DNA of 64,000 bases from Shigella phage vB_SsoM_113: sequence record LR746311. One strand, written 5' to 3'. A model generated the notes under the pieces. It was not told the DNA's origin. It did no database searches and saw nothing but the letters and a program-made list of their open reading frames with translations. Numbering within the stretch: position 1 is the stretch's first letter; every line of letters begins with the position of its first letter. Both the position numbers and the translations under genes were made by a program. This document shows, piece after piece, positions 42,839 through 53,574 of the stretch.

Positions 42839-43074
42839 TGAAATTTCGTTTGGTACAGCTCACAGCAATTAGTTCTTATTCTACCGAGAACATTTCATTT
42901 GCTGTAGAGTATAAGAAATATTTTTTCTCTAGGTGGAAACAGTATTATAAATCAAACTGGGTTTGTATTGATAGACCGCATAGTTGGAAATCTGATTTAG
43001 AAAAATATCAAAAATTACTTTCCACTCTTAAAGAACGTGGAACAATTTATCATAAAACTGTAATAGGTAAATAA
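42838..43074 (+). CDS. hypothetical protein (31.x position)
   Basis: 78-aa ORF. Confidence 0.4.
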   Translation: MKFRLVQLTAISSYSTENISFAVEYKKYFFSRWKQYYKSNWVCIDRPHSWKSDLEKYQKLLSTLKERGTIYHKTVIGK

Positions 43075-43383
43075 ATGAAACTGACGACTGAACAAAAAGT
43101 AGCAATTCGTGAAATTTTGAAAACTAAATTGTCCATGGGGGTTTCAAACGTAGTTTTTGAAAAGTCTGATGGTACTATTCGTACTATGAAAGGCACTCGT
43201 GATGCGGACTTTATGCCAACCATGCAAACTGGTAAATTGACTGAATCTACTCGGAAAGAATCTACTGATATGGTTCCAGTATTTGATGTTGAACTCGGTG
43301 CATGGCGAGGTTTTTCTATTGACAAATTGATTTCCGTTAATGGTATGAAAGTTGAGCATTTGCTTCAATTTATTGGTAAATAA
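43075..43383 (+). CDS. hypothetical protein (31.x position)
   Basis: 102-aa ORF. Confidence 0.45.
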   Translation: MKLTTEQKVAIREILKTKLSMGVSNVVFEKSDGTIRTMKGTRDADFMPTMQTGKLTESTRKESTDMVPVFDVELGAWRGFSIDKLISVNGMKVEHLLQFIGK

Positions 43384-43439
43384 ATGCTTTAAGAATTATT
43401 TGTTATTATTAATTCATCTGTTAACAAAAAGGAAAAACG

Positions 43440-43775
43440 ATGTCTGAAGTACAACAGCTACCAATTCGTGCTGTCGGTGAATATGTGATTTTAGTTTCTG
43501 AACCTGCACAAGCCGGTGATGAAGAAGTTACAGAATCAGGGCTTATTATCGGTAAACGCGTCCAAGGCGAAGTTCCTGAACTGTGTGTAATTCACTCTGT
43601 TGGTCCTGATGTTCCTGAAGGTTTCTGTGAAGTTGGTGATTTGACTTCTCTTCCAGTTGGTCAAATTCGAAACGTTCCGCATCCTTTTGTAGCTCTGGGT
43701 CTTAAGCAGCCAAAAGAAATTAAACAAAAATTTGTTACCTGTCACTATAAAGCTATTCCGTGTCTTTATAAGTGA
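43440..43775 (+). CDS. 31: co-chaperonin gp31 (GroES analogue)
   Basis: 111 aa; [40 protein letters not shown] matches T4 gp31. Confidence 0.9.
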
Positions 43776-43922
43776 TATAAATAATAATATGAATTGGGTG
43801 TCGGAATAATAAGTTAACCGAACAATTCTATGTGGTAGTCTACAACTGAGAGATCTGTCGAAAGAAGATGAAATTCAGAAGAACGTGACTACCGAGTTTT
43901 AATCTCTAACGAGAATTTTTAA

Positions 43923-44171
43923 ATGATTAAACAATTACAACACGCTCTTGAACTGCAACGAAACGCATGGAATAATGGTCACGAAAACTATGGCGCATCT
44001 ATTGATGTTGAAGCCGAAGCTCTTGAAATCCTGCGTTATTTCAAACATCTGAATCCTGCTCAAACTGCATTAGCTGCTGAGCTTCAGGAAAAAGATGAAC
44101 TTAAGTATGCTAAGCCTCTGGCTTCTGCCGCACGAAAAGCAGTTCGTCACTTTGTGGTAACACTGAAGTAA
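43923..44171 (+). CDS. rIII: lysis inhibition accessory protein RIII
   Basis: 82 aa, conserved position after gene 31. Confidence 0.75.
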   Translation: MIKQLQHALELQRNAWNNGHENYGASIDVEAEALEILRYFKHLNPAQTALAAELQEKDELKYAKPLASAARKAVRHFVVTLK

Positions 44172-44567
44172 TTTATTGGAGATTCACTGCCTTAGTGTGA
44201 GCTAAAATCGAGGAGCCGTCGAACTGTCTGATTAATGATTTGCGAATCATTATAGTTTTAAGACCCCGGCAGTTTTACGGTGTACCTCTTGAATGTTATT
44301 CTTATAGCGGCAAGTGCATGCTACCCCGAGGTGATGGCCAATCGGGAGTACGCCTCAAGGCCTATATATCCATCAGTATATATCTTATCCTCGAGAAATC
44401 GAACCCGGAACCTTTAAGCTAACGGTGTGCAACAGATAAGAGTTATAAGTATGATGACGGGTTTATGGTTATCCTGTCGGTAAATACTCAAAACCTAAGT
44501 ACCCCCTTGAGGGCTTTCGCAGGCAATGCCAATAAGTCCTGCATTTTCATTTAAAAGAGAATTTATA
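44172..44567 (+). other. ORF-poor, GC-enriched structured region (candidate ncRNA or long structured leader)
   Basis: About 400 bp with no convincing ORF; hairpin taatgatt-tgcg-aatcatta at 44232-44251; long-range complement cctcaagg (44355-44362) with ccttgagg (44506-44513); terminal hairpin gcagg...cctgc 44519-44542 plus U-run. Confidence 0.3.
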
Positions 44568-44744
44568 ATGGCAAAACAAGCTAAAGCAAAGAAAGCAGTT
44601 GAAAAGAAAGTTGGTGATTCTAAACGCGCTGGTTACAAGCGTGGGTCGAACTCTCGTATCAATCAAACTGTTGAGAAGATCATGCGCCGAGCACGTGCGG
44701 TTCTTCGAGATGATGCTTCTCGTTTTGGTAAGCAGAAAGCATAA
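44568..44744 (+). CDS. small Lys/Arg-rich basic protein (58 aa)
   Basis: MAKQAKAKKAVEKKVGDSKRAGYKRGSNSRINQTVEKIMRRARAVLRDDASRFGKQKA; followed by a strong terminator. Confidence 0.45.
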   Translation: MAKQAKAKKAVEKKVGDSKRAGYKRGSNSRINQTVEKIMRRARAVLRDDASRFGKQKA

Positions 44745-44748
44745 GTTG

Positions 44749-44776
44749 AGGACTCCTTCGGGAGTCCTTTTTTATT
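44749..44776 (+). terminator. rho-independent terminator
   Basis: aggactcc-ttcg-ggagtcct followed by ttttttat. Confidence 0.65.
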
Positions 44777-44797
44777 TTCCAAAGACTGCACAAAGTT

Positions 44798-44830
44798 GTT
44801 TACAGTATGGTTCCTTTGTGATAGTATTAT
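44798..44830 (+). promoter_or_regulatory. early promoter
   Basis: gtttac 44798-44803, about 18-bp spacer, tagtattat. Confidence 0.5.
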
Positions 44831-44854
44831 CTTACACAAACAAAGGAGAATAAA

Positions 44855-45187
44855 ATGAAAACGATTAATCTGAACGCTGCAGTTAAAACTAAATGCTTCA
44901 ATGGTAAATATGATGAAACTATGTGGTTCTTAATGGCAGTTGAAGGTGATATTATTGAAGTAGAAACAACAGAAGGTATGGGAACAGATTTCACCTTTAC
45001 AATTCAAGTTCATAATTTCTTTACTGGTTGGATTTATGAATTGAATACAGTAATCGTTGGAAAAATTGAACAAAATGAATTGGGTGAATGGTATTATGTT
45101 ACAGCTCGCCAACGTGCCGAACGCTTAATTGAGAAGATGAAAAAAGTTGGTAAACTTGACATGCAGCACTGGAAAGTAGTAAAATAA
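44855..45187 (+). CDS. hypothetical protein (30.x region)
   Basis: 110 aa, AGGAGA RBS. Confidence 0.5.
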   Translation: MKTINLNAAVKTKCFNGKYDETMWFLMAVEGDIIEVETTEGMGTDFTFTIQVHNFFTGWIYELNTVIVGKIEQNELGEWYYVTARQRAERLIEKMKKVGKLDMQHWKVVK

Positions 45188-45189
45188 TT

Positions 45190-45229
45190 GTTTACTTTGG
45201 TACAGGATATGATATTATATACCTGTACC
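45190..45229 (+). promoter_or_regulatory. early promoter with palindromic spacer
   Basis: gtttac 45190-45195; ggtacagg...cctgtacc inverted repeat embraces the -10 tattat. Confidence 0.5.
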
Positions 45230-45254
45230 GCAATTAAACATCTTGGAGAATAAA

Positions 45255-45620
45255 ATGAACTACATCAACTTTGAACGTAAATATGTTTCTAACGGTATTG
45301 CAGGTTCTATTGATACTATCTGTCTTTGGAAACATCAAAATGGATCAGTATGCGAAATTGAACAGTATATGACTCCTAACTACGTTTATATGCGATTTGA
45401 AAATGGCATCACGGTTTCAATCACAATGGAAGGTTCCAACTTCAAAATCGCTTTGGATGATGATTTTCGTCAACGCGATTTAGGGACTCATCCTTGCTGG
45501 AATGGTGTTAATCGCAAGCTTCTGGTTAAAACTTGGATTCGTCATATTCTGAGTAACAGAGCTAAACCTGAGCATCTTGAAGCAATCTTTGATGTAGTTA
45601 TTAACGAATTTGATATTTAA
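45255..45620 (+). CDS. hypothetical protein (30.x region)
   Basis: 121 aa from the second ATG (MNYINFERKY...), GGAGA RBS. Confidence 0.5.
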   Translation: MNYINFERKYVSNGIAGSIDTICLWKHQNGSVCEIEQYMTPNYVYMRFENGITVSITMEGSNFKIALDDDFRQRDLGTHPCWNGVNRKLLVKTWIRHILSNRAKPEHLEAIFDVVINEFDI

Positions 45621-45661
45621 AATAAAATGAGGGGCTTCGGCCCCTTACTGAGGAAAATACT

Positions 45662-45949
45662 ATGTTTATGACTACTTATTTTGACACCCGCAAAAATTTC
45701 TGTGAAGTGGTTTTCTCTAAGGCGCCTAAAGACCTTCCTGCTCATTTGCAACCTACCAGTGAATCAATTAAAAACTACGTTAATATAGTCTGCCCTTTGG
45801 AGTTCCGTATTGTAAATGGGTGCGATACTTTAGCTATCACTAAACTCAATCGTGAAATTGACATTGACCCTTCAATTGCGCGTGAAATTAATATTTCTGA
45901 TATTGGCGGCGGTAATGTTAAATCACATGGCTTTCAGATGAGATTTTAA
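45662..45949 (+). CDS. hypothetical protein (30.x region)
   Basis: 95-aa ORF preceded by the ggggcttcggcccc hairpin at 45631-45644. Confidence 0.45.
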   Translation: MFMTTYFDTRKNFCEVVFSKAPKDLPAHLQPTSESIKNYVNIVCPLEFRIVNGCDTLAITKLNREIDIDPSIAREINISDIGGGNVKSHGFQMRF

Positions 45950-45953
45950 TAAA

Positions 45954-46169
45954 ATGTTTAAGAAATTAATCCAGAAATTACTGGGCACGGAAATGGTTGA
46001 AGTTACTTATCGTGTGACTGATGTCTCTCCGCTCACTGAAGACCATTTAGAGCCATATATTATGACAATTAAAATGCTTAAATATGATGGCGGATTATCT
46101 GTTGAAGACCGTTTACCAAGTTATGGTCATTGGGCTGATATTGAAATTATAAGTATTGAAAATGTCTGA
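45954..46169 (+). CDS. hypothetical protein (30.x region)
   Basis: 71-aa ORF. Confidence 0.4.
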   Translation: MFKKLIQKLLGTEMVEVTYRVTDVSPLTEDHLEPYIMTIKMLKYDGGLSVEDRLPSYGHWADIEIISIENV

Positions 46170-46620
46170 GCTAGAGATAAGAAGCAATTTTAAATGGCCA
46201 TCATGCGCATTAAGTAATTTTGCCCAATGGCCTTTCGTTATGGATGGTATTCAATTTGGAGGTCTAGAAGGATTCCTCCAAGGGTGTAAGGTGAAAAATG
46301 TTGAACAACAACGTCGTATATTTGGGTTATCCGGGCTTGCCGCCCAACAGGCTGGAAGGTCTTATGCTAGAGCTCAGGACCGTGGCACGTTGTTCTGGCT
46401 TGGAGTTCCGTTTTCAAGATACTCCCCGGCGTGGAAAGAATTATACACAAATGCATATTTTGAAGCAGCGTTCCAAAACAAGGGCTTTCGCGATGCATTA
46501 CAAGCCTCGAAAGGAAAAGTTTTGAAGCACAGCATGGCTAGTGGTCTAACAAAAGATGATACAATACTAACCGAAGCTGAATTTATTGATGTGTTAAACC
46601 TATTAAGAGACTCTCTATGA
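46156..46620 (+). CDS. NADAR (YbiA/DUF1768)-like protein, candidate ADP-ribose-processing enzyme
   Basis: 154 aa; motif series SNFAQWP..DG..LEGFLQGCK...AAQQAGR...FEAAFQN..FRDAL resembles the recalled YbiA/NADAR pattern (SNFA.WP..DG..E.YFQA.K...AARMGR); the His of the recalled EH motif is replaced. Confidence 0.5.
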   Translation: MKMSELEIRSNFKWPSCALSNFAQWPFVMDGIQFGGLEGFLQGCKVKNVEQQRRIFGLSGLAAQQAGRSYARAQDRGTLFWLGVPFSRYSPAWKELYTNAYFEAAFQNKGFRDALQASKGKVLKHSMASGLTKDDTILTEAEFIDVLNLLRDSL

Positions 46621-47456
46621 AGCCTACTATTTTAACTGATATTGATGGAGTGTGTTTAAGCTGGCAATCAGGTCTTCCTTATTTTGCTCAGAAATATAAT
46701 CTTCCGTTAGAACATATTTTAAAAATGATCCAAGATGAGAAATTTATTTCTCCAGGTAAACTCTTTAATTGTGATGAAGAACTTGGTGTCAAGCTAATTG
46801 AAAAATACAATCGATCAGATTTTATTCGTTACTTGTCTCCATATAAAGATGCCTTGTGCGTAATTAACAAACTAAAAGAAGATTATAATTTTGTAGCTGT
46901 TACAGCGCTGGGTGATTCTATTGACGCTCTGTTGAATCGTCAATTTAATTTGAATGCTCTTTTTCCTGGTGCCTTCTCAGAAGTAATGATGTGTGGTCAT
47001 GATTCTTCAAAAGAAGAGTTGTTCAAAAAGGCAAAAGAGAAATATAACGTAATTTGTTATATTGACGATCTTGCTCACCACTGCGACCACGCGAGTGAAA
47101 TATTAAATGTTCCGGTTTATTGGATGGCTCGAGGAGAGCGTGACAATATTCCAAAAACTGCGCAGCGAGTTTATACATGGAATGATGTAGAAAATAAGTT
47201 TTTTTCGCCGAAGGAAAATAAAGAAAGTTTTGATAGTGAAAAAGCTATAAAAGATTTAATTGAGAAGATGGTTAAAAACGATTCTTTTCCTTGGAACACT
47301 ACCTGGAAAACGCCTGGATTTAATCCTTATAATCATCTATATCATCCATATCAGACACATCCGTTTCAGACATGGAACTACATTAAACCTGGTGGCATAG
47401 AGTATTTGTATAATAGACCTACTAGCGGTGATAATATTTTCCAAGGAGCATTCTAA
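46617..47456 (+). CDS. HAD-superfamily phosphatase/nucleotidase-like protein
   Basis: 279 aa; HAD motif I ILTDIDGV at residues 5-12, Ser/Thr motif VAVTALG, Lys, and YIDDLAHH acidic motif; ATGA overlap with the NADAR-like ORF. Confidence 0.55.
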   Translation: MKPTILTDIDGVCLSWQSGLPYFAQKYNLPLEHILKMIQDEKFISPGKLFNCDEELGVKLIEKYNRSDFIRYLSPYKDALCVINKLKEDYNFVAVTALGDSIDALLNRQFNLNALFPGAFSEVMMCGHDSSKEELFKKAKEKYNVICYIDDLAHHCDHASEILNVPVYWMARGERDNIPKTAQRVYTWNDVENKFFSPKENKESFDSEKAIKDLIEKMVKNDSFPWNTTWKTPGFNPYNHLYHPYQTHPFQTWNYIKPGGIEYLYNRPTSGDNIFQGAF

Positions 47457-47725
47457 TGTTTGTTGTTCACACTATTTATGAAAATGAAGGTAATACTACA
47501 CGTGATTACGGTCACGTAAATCAATTTTTTAGATGTAATCCAGAATTCCGAGCTCAAAAAGACGAACGAATTTTTAAAAAATGTGTAGAGCAAGGTTTCA
47601 TTTACGTTAAGCACTGGATGCAAGGAAATAAAGTTAGAACTACATATCATAGGTCTTTGCCTGAGCTTAATGATGAATTGATTTATAATAGAGCTGTAAA
47701 CCAAACCTTGAAGGATGAGCAATGA
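47456..47725 (+). CDS. hypothetical protein (30.1 position)
   Basis: 89-aa ORF, overlapping stop/start on both sides. Confidence 0.45.
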   Translation: MFVVHTIYENEGNTTRDYGHVNQFFRCNPEFRAQKDERIFKKCVEQGFIYVKHWMQGNKVRTTYHRSLPELNDELIYNRAVNQTLKDEQ

Positions 47726-49182
47726 TTCTTAAAATTCTGAATGAAATAGCATCTATTGGATCAACTAAGCAGAAGCAAGCAATTCTTGAAAAGAATAAAG
47801 ATAATGAATTGCTTAAACGAGTATATCGTCTGACTTATTCTCGTGGGTTACAGTATTATATCAAGAAATGGCCTAAACCTGGTATTGCTACCCAGAGTTT
47901 TGGAATGCTGACTATTACCGATATGCTTGACTTCATTGAATTCACGTTAGCTACTCGGAAATTGACTGGAAATGCTGCAATTGAGGAATTAACTGGATAT
48001 ATCACTGATGGTAAAAAGGATGATGTTGAAGTTTTGCGTCGAGTGATGATGCGAGATCTTGAATGCGGTGCTTCAGTATCTATTGCAAATAAAGTTTGGC
48101 CAGGTTTAATTCCTGAACAACCTCAAATGTTGGCAAGTTCTTATGATGAAAAAGGCATTAGTAAGAATATCAAATTTCCAGCCTTTGCACAGTTAAAAGC
48201 AGATGGAGCTCGGTGTTTTGCTGAAGTCCGAGGCGATGAATTAGATGATGTTCGTCTTTTATCACGAGCTGGTAATGAATATCTAGGATTAGATCTTCTT
48301 AAGGAAGAGTTAATCAAAATGACCGCTGAAGCTCGCCAGATTCATCCAGAAGGCGTGTTAATTGATGGCGAATTGGTATACCATGAGCAAGTTGAAAAAG
48401 AGCCAGAAGGCCTAGATTTTCTTTTTGATGCTCCTGAAATCAGTAAAGCTAAAGAGTTTTCCGAAGTAGCTGAATCACGTACTGCTTCTAATGGAATTGC
48501 CAATAAATCTTTAAAGGGAACTATTTCAGAAAAAGAAGCTCAATGTATGAAGTTTCAGGTCTGGGATTATGTCCCGTTAGTAGAAATATACGGTCTTCCA
48601 GCATTTCGTTTGAAGTATGATGTACGTTTTTCTAAACTAGAACAAATGACATCAGGATATGATAAAGTAATTTTAATTGAAAACCAGATAGTAAATAACC
48701 TAGATGAAGCTAAGGTAATTTATAAAAAGTATATTGACCAAGGTCTTGAAGGTATTATTCTCAAAAATATCGATGGATTATGGGAAAATTCTCGTTCAAA
48801 AAATCTCTATAAATTTAAAGAAGTAATTGATGTTGATTTAAAAATTGTAGGAATTTATCCTCACCGTAAAGACCCTACTAAAGCAGGTGGATTTATTCTT
48901 GAATCAGAGTGTGGAAAAATTAAAGTAAATGCTGGGTCAGGCTTAAAAGATAAAGCCGGTGTAAAATCGCATGAACTTGACCGTACTCGCATTATGGAAA
49001 ACCAAAATTATTATATTGGAAAAATTCTAGAGTGCGAATGCAATGGTTGGTTAAAATCTGATGGCCGCACTGATTACGTTAAATTATTTCTTCCGATTGC
49101 GATTCGTTTACGTGAAGATAAAACTAAAGCTAATACATTCGAGGATGTATTTGGTGATTTTCATGAGGTAACTGGTCTATGA
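47722..49182 (+). CDS. 30: ATP-dependent DNA ligase
   Basis: 486 aa (T4 ligase is 487); conserved position upstream of alt. Confidence 0.9.
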   Translation: MILKILNEIASIGSTKQKQAILEKNKDNELLKRVYRLTYSRGLQYYIKKWPKPGIATQSFGMLTITDMLDFIEFTLATRKLTGNAAIEELTGYITDGKKDDVEVLRRVMMRDLECGASVSIANKVWPGLIPEQPQMLASSYDEKGISKNIKFPAFAQLKADGARCFAEVRGDELDDVRLLSRAGNEYLGLDLLKEELIKMTAEARQIHPEGVLIDGELVYHEQVEKEPEGLDFLFDAPEISKAKEFSEVAESRTASNGIANKSLKGTISEKEAQCMKFQVWDYVPLVEIYGLPAFRLKYDVRFSKLEQMTSGYDKVILIENQIVNNLDEAKVIYKKYIDQGLEGIILKNIDGLWENSRSKNLYKFKEVIDVDLKIVGIYPHRKDPTKAGGFILESECGKIKVNAGSGLKDKAGVKSHELDRTRIMENQNYYIGKILECECNGWLKSDGRTDYVKLFLPIAIRLREDKTKANTFEDVFGDFHEVTGL

Positions 49183-49367
49183 AAGCTTACTTAGAAACAA
49201 TTGTCGTGGCTCAAAAAGAAGGTGGAGATGTTTCTACTTCTGTATCACAAATTATGATTGAATTTATAGATGCATATGCTTATAATAAATTCACAGAAAC
49301 ATTTGATACCTATGAAAAAGGTCCAAAGTTTGAAATATATCGTACTCTCTTACCAATAGATTATTAA
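49179..49367 (+). CDS. hypothetical protein (alt.1 position)
   Basis: 62 aa, ATGA overlap with the ligase stop. Confidence 0.4.
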   Translation: MKAYLETIVVAQKEGGDVSTSVSQIMIEFIDAYAYNKFTETFDTYEKGPKFEIYRTLLPIDY

Positions 49368-49390
49368 AGGCCTTCGGGCCTTTAATTTTA
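49366..49390 (+). terminator. terminator-like hairpin
   Basis: aaaggcc-ttcg-ggccttt followed by a T-rich tract. Confidence 0.45.
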
Positions 49391-49419
49391 TAAATAGAAT
49401 AAACACTAGAGAGGATATG

Positions 49420-51513
49420 ATGGAACTCATTACAGAATTATTTGACGAAGATACTACTCTTCCGATTACAAACTTAAATCCAAAGAAGAAAATACCGCAA
49501 ATTTTTTCAGTTCATGTTGATGACGCAATTGAACAACCAGGTTTTCGTTTATGTACCTATACATCTGGAGGTGATACTAATCGCGATTTAAAAATGGGCG
49601 ATAAAATGATGCATATTGTTCCTTTTACATTAACTGCTAAAGGTTCAATTGCTAAATTAAAAGGTCTCGGTCCAAGCCCAATTAATTACATCAATTCAGT
49701 TTTTACTGTTGCGATGCAGACGATGCGTCAGTATAAAATTGATGCATGTATGCTCCGTATTCTTAAGTCTAAAACTGCTGGTCAAGCTCGTCAAATTCAA
49801 CTTATTGCTGATAGACTTATCCGTAGTCGTTCAGGTGGCAGATACGTCCTTCTTAAGGAACTCTGGGATTATGATAAAAAGTATGCATATATTCTTATAC
49901 ATCGCAAAAATGTATCATTAGAAGACATTCCAGGAGTTCCAGAAATTAGTACCGAGCTCTTTACTAAAGTTGAATCGAAGGTCGGTGATGTTTATATCAA
50001 TAAAGATACTGGAGCTCAAGTAACTAAAAATGAGGCAATTGCTGCATCTATTGCGCAAGAAAATGATAAACGTTCTGACCAAGCGGTAATCGTTAAAGTT
50101 AAAATTTCCCGTAGAGCAATTGCACAAAGTCAGTCATTGGAATCTTCTAGATTTGAAAGTGAATTATTCCAGAAGTATGAATCTACCGCAGCTAATTTCA
50201 ATAAACCTGCTACAGCTCCTTTAATTCCCGAAGCAGAAGAAATGAAGCTTGGAATTAATTCATTAGCTTCTAAAACTAAGGCAGCAAAAATTATTGCTGA
50301 AGGAACTGCAGATGAACTTCATTATGACTATAAATTCTTTTCAAAAAGTGAGGTTAATGAAGTTTCTGAAAAAATTAAAGATGTAATTCTTAATGCGATT
50401 AAAAATGAACCAACTACTTCAATAAAATGTTTAGAGAAATACGCAGCAGCTGTTAATCAATTATTTGAAGAATATAAAGATAACTGGCTTGATAAACATA
50501 ATAAAACTCGTAAAGGACAAACAGATGAAGTCTGGGAAGAAATAACTAAAAATTCCTGGAACGCAGCAAAAACTAAATTCCTCAAACGAATGATTTATAG
50601 CTTTTCCGGAATTGGTGCAGGTCCAATGATTGATATTACTATTGCCCGTGATGGTTCTAAATATACTCCATCACAAAAGCGCGGCATTAGAGAGTATTGT
50701 GGTTCAGGATATACTGACATCAATAATCTTCTTTTGGGTCGTTACAATCCAGAACGATATGATGTAATGAGTGAAAAAGAAATTGAATCTGCTATAAATA
50801 ACTTAGATTCAGCTTTTGAAAACGGTGACCGTATACCAGAAGGCATTACAGTTTATCGTGCTCAAAGCATGACTGCTCCTATATACGAAGCATTAGTTAA
50901 AAATAAAGTATTCTATTTCAGAAATTTTGTATCTACTTCTTTAACTCCTATCATTTTTGGACGTTTTGGAATTACACATGCTGGTATTGGTCTTTTAGAA
51001 CCAGAAGCTCGTAATGAATTGACAGTTGATAAAAATGAAGAAGGAATAACTATTAATCCAAACGAAATAAGAGCATATAAAGAAAATCCTGAATACGTTA
51101 AAGTTCAAATAGGATGGGCAATTGATGGAGCTCATAAAGTTAATGTTGTATATCCAGGAAGTCTCGGAATAGCAACAGAAGCTGAAGTTATTCTACCACG
51201 CGGATTGATGGTCAAAGTTAATAAAATAACTGATGCTTCTAATAATGACGGAACAACATCTAATAATACAAAACTCATTCAAGCTGAAGTTATGACTACG
51301 GAAGAACTCACCGAATCAGTAATTTATGACGGTGATCGTCTAATGGAAACTGGTGAAGTAGTTGCAATGACAGGTGATATTGAAATAGAAGACAGAGTTG
51401 ATTTTGCATCATTTGTTTCATCAAATGTTAAACAAAAAGTAGAATCATCTCTTGGAATTATTGCGTCTTGCATAGATATTGCAAACATGCCTTACAAGTT
51501 CGTTCAAGGATAA
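49420..51513 (+). CDS. alt: Alt-type ADP-ribosyltransferase, paralog 1
   Basis: 697 aa; N-terminus MELITELFDE...; C-terminal R-S-E ART triad: VYRAQS, FVSTSL, TEAEVILPRG. Confidence 0.75.
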   Translation: MELITELFDEDTTLPITNLNPKKKIPQIFSVHVDDAIEQPGFRLCTYTSGGDTNRDLKMGDKMMHIVPFTLTAKGSIAKLKGLGPSPINYINSVFTVAMQTMRQYKIDACMLRILKSKTAGQARQIQLIADRLIRSRSGGRYVLLKELWDYDKKYAYILIHRKNVSLEDIPGVPEISTELFTKVESKVGDVYINKDTGAQVTKNEAIAASIAQENDKRSDQAVIVKVKISRRAIAQSQSLESSRFESELFQKYESTAANFNKPATAPLIPEAEEMKLGINSLASKTKAAKIIAEGTADELHYDYKFFSKSEVNEVSEKIKDVILNAIKNEPTTSIKCLEKYAAAVNQLFEEYKDNWLDKHNKTRKGQTDEVWEEITKNSWNAAKTKFLKRMIYSFSGIGAGPMIDITIARDGSKYTPSQKRGIREYCGSGYTDINNLLLGRYNPERYDVMSEKEIESAINNLDSAFENGDRIPEGITVYRAQSMTAPIYEALVKNKVFYFRNFVSTSLTPIIFGRFGITHAGIGLLEPEARNELTVDKNEEGITINPNEIRAYKENPEYVKVQIGWAIDGAHKVNVVYPGSLGIATEAEVILPRGLMVKVNKITDASNNDGTTSNNTKLIQAEVMTTEELTESVIYDGDRLMETGEVVAMTGDIEIEDRVDFASFVSSNVKQKVESSLGIIASCIDIANMPYKFVQG

Positions 51514-51516
51514 ATC

Positions 51517-53574
51517 ATGGAACTTATTACAGAATTATTTGACGGCGCTTCGGCGCCGGTTGTTAACTTAAATCCTAAGCATAAAATACCTCAAATTTTT
51601 GCTATTCAAGCCGGTGAAGAAAGCGTGCTTCCTGGATTTAGATTTTGTACATACACCTCTGGTGGTGATACAAATAAAAACGTTAAGCCAGGCGATAAAA
51701 TGATGCATATCGTAATGATAGGTGTCAATGAGAAACTATCATTAGTTAAACTTAAAAACTTGGGTGGAAATCCAATTGGTGTCATTAATGCCGTTTTTGA
51801 TACTGCTCTTCAAACAATGAAACAGTATAAAATTGACGCATGCCTATTCCGCGTACTAAAGAGTAAAACAAATGGCGCAGCTCGTCAAATGCAAGTTATT
51901 GCTGACCGTTTAGTACGTACTAAAGGAGCAGGTCGATATGTTCTTTTAAAAGAAATCTGGGATTATGATAAAAAGTATGCATATATTATGGTTTACCGTA
52001 AAAATGCCAATTTAGAAGACATTCCAGGTGTACCTCCTATTTCAACTGAGTTATTCACAAAAGTTGAATCAAAGGTTGGTGATGTTTATGTAGATGTTAA
52101 AACAGGTAATGCTGTTCCTAAAGCCGTTGCTGTGGCTGCTTCTATTGCTTTAGAAAATGATAAGCGCACGGATCAAGCTGTTATTCAGAAAACTAAAATT
52201 AGCCGTCGATTAGCAGCACAAGCTCAATATTCTACTGTCGATGCTTCACTTCAGGGTGATAGCTTCGCTGCCAAGAAATATCAAGAGTTTGAATCTAAAG
52301 TTCCGGTATATAAAGCAGAAGGACCAATGAACTCTGGTGTTATTCAGATTGGTTCCAACTTCAGCAAAGGAGCTATCGGTGGTATGAGAAGTGCTTCTCG
52401 TTTTAAATCTAACGATTATGAACTAGAAAGCTTCCGAAATCATATTGCATTGGCCCATGCACGTTTACGTGATCCGTCTATCAGACTGCAGAGCGATATA
52501 ACATATCAAGGTTCTCAAGAATATTTAAAGAATAAAGAATTTTTTGATTATAAAACCGATAAAATTTTGAGCGATCTCGCTGACATTAATATTTCTAATA
52601 GCTTTGATGTTATTAAGAAAATTGTCAATGATTTAGTTAAAGGTTCTAAAGCCGCACCAGACGAAAAGGTAGCTATTATTCAATTTGTCATGAATAGCAT
52701 TTATAAATTGATTAATGAATCTGCTGCTCAGGCATATGAATACGCAAGCACCGAAGTAACTCCAAAAGGATTAACTCAGTCTGAGTCTGATGTAATTGAA
52801 GATTATTGTGCAGATTCATATGTTGAAATGAACTCGTTCCTCTTGGGTAAACCAGATTCTACCCGTGAAGAATACATGGAACGAGCTATTAAACACATCG
52901 AGACGCTGGATTCTGCATTCGCCAAAGGATCAGTTCTTCCTCCAGGAACTACGCTTTATCGTGGGCAAGAAGTTACTTTTAAAACTTTACGTCATAATAT
53001 TGAAAATAAAATGTTCTATTTTAAGAACTTCGTATCAACATCGCTTAAACCAAATATCTTCGGTGAGCATGGTAAAAACTATATGGCTCTAGATGATTCA
53101 GGTGCAGTATTTTCTGGTGAAGGAGAAGGTTCTGTTGATGCTGAAGATTTAATGCATATGGGTAGTCATTCTGCATATGCTAATGAAGATGCTGAAGCTA
53201 GCGTAGGTATGGTAATTAAAGGGGCTGAGCGAATCAAAGTTATCGTTCCAGGTCATTTATCAGGATTTCCATCAGAAGCTGAAGTTATTCTACCACGTGG
53301 AATTTTGTTAAAGATTAATAAAGTAAGCACGTACATGATGAAAGAAACTGCTTATAACAAGTATCTAATCGAAGGCACAATCGTTCCTCCTTCTGAACAA
53401 TTAGAAGAATCAGTATATGATGGCGATCATCTAATGGAAACTGGTGAAGTTCGTCCAATGGCTAGGTTTAATCAATTCCTTGTAGAAGAATCAAAAGAAG
53501 AGGAAAACGAAGTTTCTCAAATCTTGGCTTCTTTGGTTAACATCAATGGAATGTCTAAAAAGTTCAAGATGTAG
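51517..53574 (+). CDS. Alt-type ADP-ribosyltransferase, paralog 2
   Basis: 685 aa; same N-terminus MELITELFDG and C-terminal ART motifs (LYRGQE, FVSTSL, SEAEVILPRG); divergent central region. Confidence 0.75.
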   Translation: MELITELFDGASAPVVNLNPKHKIPQIFAIQAGEESVLPGFRFCTYTSGGDTNKNVKPGDKMMHIVMIGVNEKLSLVKLKNLGGNPIGVINAVFDTALQTMKQYKIDACLFRVLKSKTNGAARQMQVIADRLVRTKGAGRYVLLKEIWDYDKKYAYIMVYRKNANLEDIPGVPPISTELFTKVESKVGDVYVDVKTGNAVPKAVAVAASIALENDKRTDQAVIQKTKISRRLAAQAQYSTVDASLQGDSFAAKKYQEFESKVPVYKAEGPMNSGVIQIGSNFSKGAIGGMRSASRFKSNDYELESFRNHIALAHARLRDPSIRLQSDITYQGSQEYLKNKEFFDYKTDKILSDLADINISNSFDVIKKIVNDLVKGSKAAPDEKVAIIQFVMNSIYKLINESAAQAYEYASTEVTPKGLTQSESDVIEDYCADSYVEMNSFLLGKPDSTREEYMERAIKHIETLDSAFAKGSVLPPGTTLYRGQEVTFKTLRHNIENKMFYFKNFVSTSLKPNIFGEHGKNYMALDDSGAVFSGEGEGSVDAEDLMHMGSHSAYANEDAEASVGMVIKGAERIKVIVPGHLSGFPSEAEVILPRGILLKINKVSTYMMKETAYNKYLIEGTIVPPSEQLEESVYDGDHLMETGEVRPMARFNQFLVEESKEEENEVSQILASLVNINGMSKKFKM

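Follow-up and report, generated by a model that had tools for sequence, protein, structure and literature searches.

The region 46162-47456 of the DNA that we analyzed (the window, 64,000 nucleotides of Shigella phage vB_SsoM_113, sequence record LR746311) very probably comprises the phage T4 early genes 30.3, which encodes a NADAR protein, and 30.2, which encodes a HAD phosphatase. The NADAR identity of the first gene product and its role in counter-defence are already published, and in this respect the window contributes only a further allele. The remaining value lies in the HAD partner, T4 gene 30.2, for which a testable function can be proposed: fusions of NADAR and HAD domains in NAD/ADP-ribose gene neighbourhoods make gp30.2 a concrete candidate for the T-even factor that the NADAR enzyme AdfN is reported to require. 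A pairing of AdfN with gp30.2 is possible but doubtful.

The window is a T4-like (Tequatrovirus) genome. When positions 45900-47800 were compared by megablast, 685 records of T4-like phages matched, the top one at 97%, and the gene order in the window is that of T4, running from gp31 and rIII through 30.9 down to 30.1 and on to the ligase (gene 30), alt.1, and alt (Table 1). The first-pass annotation had described two ORFs here, a NADAR(YbiA)-like ORF and a HAD phosphatase translationally coupled to it. Both ORFs are real and lie on the plus strand, at 46156-46620 and 46617-47456 as it had listed them, and the motifs that it quoted are present. The start of ORF 1 at the TTG of position 46156, which adds 2 residues, is probably wrong. 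We prefer the ATG at 46162, because it gives the 152-aa length of the protein annotated in T4 and brings the catalytic residues into the published numbering, E36 and K43.

Table 1. Features around genes 30.3 and 30.2 in the window.
Feature	Position	Strand	Basis
Gene 30.4 (71 aa)	45954..46169	+	phrog_2042 E=6.9e-35; T4 annotation; sequence
Gene 30.3 = adfN, NADAR-superfamily DNA ADP-ribosylglycohydrolase (152 aa)	46162..46620	+	
ORF 30.3' (75 aa), out of frame within 30.3	46298..46525	+	ORF list; T4 RefSeq: internal translation
ATGA start/stop overlap 30.3/30.2	46617..46620	+	Direct sequence reading
Gene 30.2, predicted C1-capped HAD-superfamily phosphatase, NT5C (5'(3')-deoxyribonucleotidase)-like (279 aa)	46617..47456	+	
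Gene 30.1 (DUF3045, 89 aa)	47456..47725	+	Pfam PF11243 E=1.6e-63
Gene 30, ATP-dependent DNA ligase	47722..49182	+	Pfam PF01068 E=2.6e-32; T4 synteny
Alt-type ADP-ribosyltransferase copy 1 (698 aa)	49417..51513	+	Pfam PF03496 E=1.5e-37
Alt-type ADP-ribosyltransferase copy 2 (685 aa)	51517..53574	+	Pfam PF03496 E=3.1e-20

The order of genes 30.3 and 30.2 and their junctions are likewise those of T4. The stop of 30.4 and the ATG of 30.3 overlap by 8 nt (ATGTCTGA), the ATGA consists of the 30.2 ATG (46617-46619) and the 30.3 TGA (46618-46620), and gene 30.1 shares 1 nt with the 30.2 stop and 4 nt with the ligase start, so that the overlaps at 30.4/30.3, 30.3/30.2, 30.2/30.1, 30.1/30, and 30/alt.1 are 8, 4, 1, 4, and 4 nt. 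Because all five junctions in the gene string overlap, the ATGA overlap carries little information. Thus, the overlap behind the proposed translational coupling is real, but its specificity is lost, and we ruled out the ATGA as a sign of specific coupling between 30.3 and 30.2. A scan of positions 43000-50000 for consensus promoters and terminators returned sites no more frequently than in shuffled sequence, and therefore leaves the transcription unit undefined. The DNA ligase (PF01068) and the two Alt-type ADP-ribosyltransferases (PF03496) that had been placed downstream are found there. Co-location of the NADARs of T4-like phages with early ADP-ribosyltransferase genes has been noted by Iyer et al. 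2022 (PMC9503650). In the window, the proximity of alt to 30.3 and 30.2 is conserved T4 synteny, and their membership of a shared functional module is only a possibility.

ORF 1 contains the motif strings LSNFAQWPFVMDGIQFGGLEGFLQGCK, AAQQAGR, and FEAAFQNKGFRDAL, and matches Pfam PF08010 (Phage_30_3) with E=1.4e-69 and 232.7 bits (cut-off 36) and phrog_652 with 1.2e-51. Its product, gp30.3, is identical to the T4 orthologue at 149 of 152 positions (98%) over the full length, TEAEFIDVLNLLRDSL included, and the substitutions relative to T4 (K11R, F104I, and M125I) are all conservative. The C-terminal helix is intact in the window allele, as are all catalytic residues. We then searched PDB sequences with a gp30.3 family profile of nine members, for which YbiA (2b3w) was the top, although weak, match (E=0.06), in an alignment that spans SNFA...E..FQ..K and sets LEGFLQGCK opposite YbiA SEHYFQAQK. 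In the family alignment E36, K43, and H123 (E38, K45, and H125 when numbered from the TTG) are invariant. The first two are the residues mutated in T4 AdfN, so the catalytic positions for which conservation had been called for are in place, and H123 (in LKHS) is the phage-type variant described in PMC11125620.

Other searches gave little for gp30.3: phmmer with either gp30.3 or gp30.2 as a single sequence found only chance matches in PDB sequences (E about 1), and NCBIfam and PADLOC had no match for gp30.3. The Pfam NADAR profile PF08719, against which a search had been suggested, misses the window protein at E<=1; on the other hand, the window protein falls in PF08010 with the E-value given above, and several PF08010 members do match PF08719, at E 5e-6 to 4e-4 and under the gathering score. 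Pfam models the gp30.3 clade apart from the NADAR family, as PF08010. With YbiA as the top PDB match and with Glu36, Lys43, and His123 all invariant, the NADAR(YbiA)-like call on ORF 1 stands and, as judged from sequence, its assignment to the NADAR superfamily (YbiA fold) is correct.

T4 gene 30.3 is adfN, the gene to which the DarTG1 resistance of T-even phages maps (Johannesman et al., Nat Commun 2025, PMC11825919). [quoted passage not shown] The in vitro removal of ADP-ribose from guanine in DNA has also been reported for T4 gp30.3 (Toxins 2024, PMC11125620). Phage RB69, in which a frameshift deletes the last helix of AdfN, is sensitive to DarTG1 (PMC11825919). In uninfected cells, AdfN-T4 fails to relieve the toxicity of DarT1; its full activity is found only in T-even infection, and a phage co-factor has been postulated (PMC11825919). 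In the NADAR classification of De Souza and Aravind, as far as it is outlined in PMC11125620, the gp30.3 proteins form the phage branch, with a His in the last strand.

Because the window allele is 98% identical to the T4 orthologue, we assign the activity and the phenotype of AdfN to it. By analogy, the window enzyme would act on DNA that the host toxin DarT1 has modified and hydrolyze the N-glycosidic bond that joins ADP-ribose to guanine. Glu36 and Lys43 would bind and activate the ADP-ribose, His123 would take the place of the Glu or Asp that other NADARs have in the last strand, and restoration of the phage template would allow replication to go on in DarTG1-carrying cells. The first-pass annotation had suggested counter-defence against ADP-ribosylating immunity; this has been demonstrated for the 98% identical T4 orthologue (PMC11825919, PMC11125620), and the role that it proposed for window 30.3 should be correct on the strength of that orthologue. 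The adfN product would then be an orphan antitoxin-like enzyme with which the phage repairs DNA of its own that a bacterial ADP-ribosyltransferase has attacked.

ORF 2 opens with MKPTILTDIDGV, which contains the DIDGV motif, and matches phrog_420 (E=1.6e-92); its product is identical to T4 gp30.2 at 269 of 279 positions (96%). T4 RefSeq labels gp30.2 hypothetical, and a literature search found no paper that mentions it. The proposed Pfam check for a HAD family failed for the window protein, which no model of Pfam (E<=1), NCBIfam, or PADLOC matched; among 31 homologues, Pfam Hydrolase matched 8, HAD_2 matched 5, and NT5C matched 4, the first two mostly weakly. In the alignment of these 31 homologues, with identity down to 35%, the HAD motifs I (D8-x-D10-G), III (K132), and IV (D150-D151) are invariant, and T96 of motif II is replaced in only one sequence, by Ser. 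AlphaFold2 predicted a Rossmannoid HAD core over residues 1-195 (about 46617-47201; pLDDT mostly >90), in which helices 16-65, inserted between motifs I and II, form a C1 cap. The C-terminal tail (about residues 200-279, about 47214-47453) is predicted to be disordered, and in the AlphaFold2 model this applies to residues 225-279. The HAD call made from the DIDGV start is thus borne out by the conserved motifs and the modeled core, on both of which we take gp30.2 to be a HAD-superfamily phosphatase.

We propose that gp30.2, translated from the same early transcript as adfN, would be a Mg-dependent HAD phosphatase whose motif I region (DxDGVxxxW.SGL) follows the pattern of 5'(3')-deoxyribonucleotidases. 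Because a helical C1 cap lies between motifs I and II, its substrate is expected to be a small molecule, not a DNA end, and may be a 5'- or 3'-phosphomonoester of a nucleotide or sugar. The cap also bears on a possible role of gp30.2 as a 3'-phosphatase of polynucleotide ends, making nicks ready for the DNA ligase encoded nearby. Macromolecule-acting HADs are typically capless in the HAD classification, and in T4 the end-phosphatase job is already done by PseT; we therefore hold this function to be highly improbable, even with the conserved synteny of gp30.2 and gene 30 in its favour.

The markers that we used for the NT5C family (PF06941) were sequence membership, a helical C1 cap, and a base-stacking aromatic residue 8 positions past the nucleophile. 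When searched against PDB sequences, the gp30.2 family profile had a mitochondrial 5'(3')-deoxyribonucleotidase as its top match, with DvDGvlvkWqsGL opposite MDGVLADFESGL; the NT5C scores of gp30.2 are weak, marginal for the profile (E=0.016) and 1.2e-4 for the best member. The structural neighbours of gp30.2 in BFVD are phage 5' nucleotidases and HADs. That 5'(3')-deoxyribonucleotidases are among the top sequence and fold matches, and that some gp30.2 homologues are annotated as 5' nucleotidase, is consistent with gp30.2 being an independent (deoxy)nucleoside monophosphate nucleotidase which owes its position to inherited T4 gene order and has no tie to AdfN. NT5C-like HADs also occur in many phages without a NADAR link. 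We give this explanation somewhat less than an even chance. An unspecific dNMP nucleotidase would work against the phage, given that T4 salvages dNMPs of the host, and the recurrence of gp30.3-type NADARs fused to or neighbouring NT5C-type HADs speaks against pure coincidence.

The other explanation joins gp30.2 and AdfN in a functional two-enzyme module, or makes gp30.2 the T-even protein on which AdfN depends for full activity in vivo. In one form of it, the HAD enzyme would remove or dephosphorylate what de-ADP-ribosylation produces or leaves behind, with AMP or ribose-5-phosphate derived from ADP-ribose, ADP-ribosylated dGMP released by DNA degradation, or signals derived from NAD as the proposed substrates. 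We consider this explanation as a whole possible but doubtful. The co-factor postulated for AdfN-T4 (PMC11825919) would fit it, as would the published host systems that couple ADP-ribose-removing enzymes to phosphatases, HAD 5' nucleotidases included. Against it, DNA is de-ADP-ribosylated in vitro by AdfN on its own, and adfN complements in trans (PMC11825919); moreover, the ATGA junction, one overlap in a string of overlaps, says little in its favour.

To compare gene neighbourhoods, we sampled 79 phage loci of gp30.2 over +/-6 kb. In 37 of the 79 loci a gp30.3 gene precedes gp30.2 on the same strand at a distance of at most 1.2 kb, and in 22 of those 37 the two are directly adjacent; in one phage contig (L098) the order of the two genes is reversed and both still belong to one gene string. 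Such same-strand closeness argues for a module. In Erwinia phage Cronus, Salmonella phage STML-198, and Roth-type phages of Klebsiella, on the other hand, the NADAR gene sits within a tRNA cluster about 60-95 kb from gp30.2, which counts against a module; gp30.2 stays beside the ligase and alt in these phages, and that it keeps its place by 30.1, ligase, and alt where the NADAR has moved is what an independent nucleotidase would show. The +/-6 kb view also suggested that gp30.2 often occurs without gp30.3. We ruled this out, as the genome-level counts are similar and the genes are sometimes far apart: homologues of gp30.3 were found in 1510 phage genome records and those of gp30.2 in 1439, with near-identical host distributions. 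These almost equal numbers and matching hosts would fit a two-enzyme module. Both genes are quasi-core in Straboviridae, and for that reason their co-occurrence is expected anyway.

A motif in the disordered tail of gp30.2, GIEY[LW]..QPT, was considered as an AdfN-docking peptide and ruled out, since it is equally common with and without an adjacent gp30.3. That this conserved motif does not track gp30.3 adjacency is a further point against the module.

Further evidence for a link between the two enzymes came from fused relatives of gp30.3. The gp30.3 profile, run against 1.84 billion representatives, returned 1454 relatives, many of them multi-domain. In one architecture that recurs among them, an NT5C-type HAD (Pfam NT5C E=1.6e-16) follows a gp30.3-clade NADAR, and in a follow-up search all of the 120 best matches carried this fusion of PF08010 and PF06941. 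The fusions come from Prevotella and Bacteroidaceae (Bacteroidales), on contigs of up to 2.6 Mb, and one is on a viral contig of IMG/VR (L108). Their NADAR half belongs to the gp30.3 clade (hhalign probability 100%, E=6e-46), with the His conserved. Their HAD half is distant from gp30.2 (hhalign probability 68% over 70 columns), a remoteness that weakens the case for a module. When the extra domains of 150 gp30.3-family representatives were searched with the gp30.2 family profile, no orthologous gp30.2 domain was found, and the top match, P0133, reached E=0.002 in what is a tiny database. Therefore, the HAD of the fusions is of a related type and belongs to another family.

Two gene neighbourhoods of the fusions illustrate their NAD/ADP-ribose context. 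In the first, a SIR2 gene, three small ORFs, and an ADP-ribosylglycohydrolase gene precede the NADAR-NT5C fusion; in the second, the fusion follows genes for a TIR protein and a RyR-domain protein. PADLOC matched no gene of the Bacteroidales operon with SIR2, ADP-ribosylglycohydrolase, and the fusion. The fusion of gp30.3-clade NADARs, N-to-C, to NT5C-type HADs in a large Bacteroidales family, and the position of these fusions beside SIR2 and an ADP-ribosylglycohydrolase or beside a TIR protein, both suggest a functional connection between the two activities. We found no discussion, in the literature examined, of the NADAR-NT5C fusion as Rosetta-stone-type support for the gp30.2 hypothesis.

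Weighing these points, we see a place for gp30.2 in the same pathway as AdfN as a tentative option. The narrower claim that gp30.2 is the missing T-even-specific partner, which would either potentiate AdfN in vivo or complete a two-step clean-up of ADP-ribose products, is unlikely. If this partner reading were true, it would explain why AdfN-T4 is fully active only in T-even infection, and the Bacteroidales fusions would represent this two-enzyme module in its cellular form. A link between AdfN and gp30.2, if true, would also define a NADAR-phosphatase module common to phages and Bacteroidales, and would provide a function for one of the roughly 100 unassigned T4 genes.

Among the known systems, T4 AdfN matches window gp30.3 in length, in E36/K43/H123, in the intact C-terminal helix, and in where its gene lies and which genes flank it. 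Three residues differ, and nothing suggests a functional difference. The NADAR antitoxins associated with DarT1 (DarG1; BC4488 family; G. lovleyi NADAR, PDB 8bat) are linked to their toxin, while phage gp30.3 is an orphan: no DarT gene lies near window 30.3, whose neighbours are 30.4 and 30.2. DarG1-type antitoxins have an N-terminal extension and an Asp in the last strand, whereas gp30.3 is a bare 152-aa domain with a His there, and unlike them gp30.3 is not an antitoxin in uninfected cells. In its action gp30.3 resembles DarG1, but it stands outside the operon type of DarT1 and NADAR. E. coli YbiA (PDB 2b3w), a housekeeping NADAR and N-glycosidase of riboflavin intermediates with a reported role in riboflavin metabolism, has a Glu in the last strand. 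Members of the NT5C family (human mdN/cdN, PDB 2jao and 6g2n; Staphylococcus epidermidis 3bwv) share with gp30.2 a HAD fold that carries a helical cap, a DxDGVLxx[F/W]xSGL motif I, and a full set of motifs II-IV; gp30.2 differs in an extra disordered tail of about 80 residues, the similarity is marginal, and Pfam NT5C misses the window protein. Finally, the Bacteroidales NADAR-NT5C fusions (such as P0133 and P0359) are chromosomal single polypeptides encoded beside SIR2/ADP-ribosylglycohydrolase or TIR genes, with a HAD half only distantly like gp30.2, and their domains run from NADAR to HAD, in the same order as 30.3 and then 30.2 in the phage.

In Bacteroidales chromosomes, the NADAR-NT5C fusion, a single polypeptide in which a gp30.3-clade NADAR domain precedes an NT5C-type HAD domain, was found in two types of conserved neighbourhood, one containing SIR2 and an ADP-ribosylglycohydrolase and the other a TIR protein and a RyR-domain protein (see the table below). 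When PADLOC models were compared with the genes of the SIR2/ADP-ribosylglycohydrolase/NADAR-NT5C operon, no gene was matched. Both neighbourhoods may represent uncharacterised NAD/ADP-ribose conflict systems. Further fusion partners of gp30.3-type NADAR domains, found in six representative proteins (P0196, P0223, P0197, P0150, P0183 and P0230), were BspA-type leucine-rich repeats, prolipoprotein diacylglyceryl transferase, GDSL lipase, an alpha/beta hydrolase (UPF0227) and an FtsW/RodA-like membrane domain; part of these fusions may be gene-calling artefacts.

A different context was observed in the T4-like genera of Erwinia phage Cronus and Klebsiella phage Roth01, where tRNA genes lie on either side of the gp30.3-type NADAR gene, and in Cronus a DUF7768 protein is encoded next after it. 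The location of a NADAR gene inside a tRNA cluster recalls the proposed link between NADAR and RNA repair.

The C-terminal tail of the HAD phosphatase gp30.2 is variable and predicted to be disordered, except for one short stretch in which the motif G-I-E-Y-[LW]-x-x-Q/R-P-T is conserved and is common to several genera (Tequatro-, Mosig- and Klebsiella/Cronobacter phages). The presence of the motif had no correlation with an adjacent NADAR gene, and the motif looks like a docking peptide for some partner.

Upstream of adfN/30.3, a terminator-like hairpin and a promoter-like site were identified on the plus strand; the numbers of such sites in the scan of window 43000-50000 were not above those in shuffled sequence.

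Features of the window and of the retrieved loci (L-handles) that carry relatives
Feature	Location	Strand	Details
Terminator-like hairpin	44748-44769	+	strong, 9 pairs then T-run; just 3' of ORF 44526-44744
Promoter-like site	45156-45185	+	near-consensus, TTGACA-18-TAAAAT; upstream of gene 30.7
30.3' counterpart	46298-46525	+	75-aa ATG ORF, frame other than adfN/30.3; ORF list, T4 annotation
gp30.2 tail motif	about 47380-47420		residues about 255-270
Small ORF between ligase and alt	49179-49367	+	T4 alt.1 position; Pfam PF24647 'Phage blade protein', E=5.4e-29
Alt-type ADP-ribosyltransferase, copy 1	49417-51513		698 aa; PF03496
Alt-type ADP-ribosyltransferase, copy 2	51517-53574		685 aa; PF03496
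NADAR gene, Cronus	L115 3498-3941		within tRNA gene cluster
NADAR gene, Roth01	L116 3501-3950		within tRNA gene cluster
Fusion neighbourhood 1	L110 4846-9661; also L111-L113		SIR2, 3 small ORFs, ADP-ribosylglycohydrolase, NADAR-NT5C fusion, 223-aa protein
Fusion neighbourhood 2	L118 5721-7987; also L119		TIR(+Sel1/TPR), RyR-domain protein, NADAR-NT5C fusion

Inside adfN/30.3, the window has a counterpart of T4 30.3', which the T4 annotation describes as 'internal translation in a different reading frame'. Beyond the ligase gene and the small ORF that follows it, the two Alt-type ADP-ribosyltransferase genes are arranged in tandem and both are full-length, whereas T4 has a single alt together with alt.-1 and alt.-2, the remnants of an old duplication.
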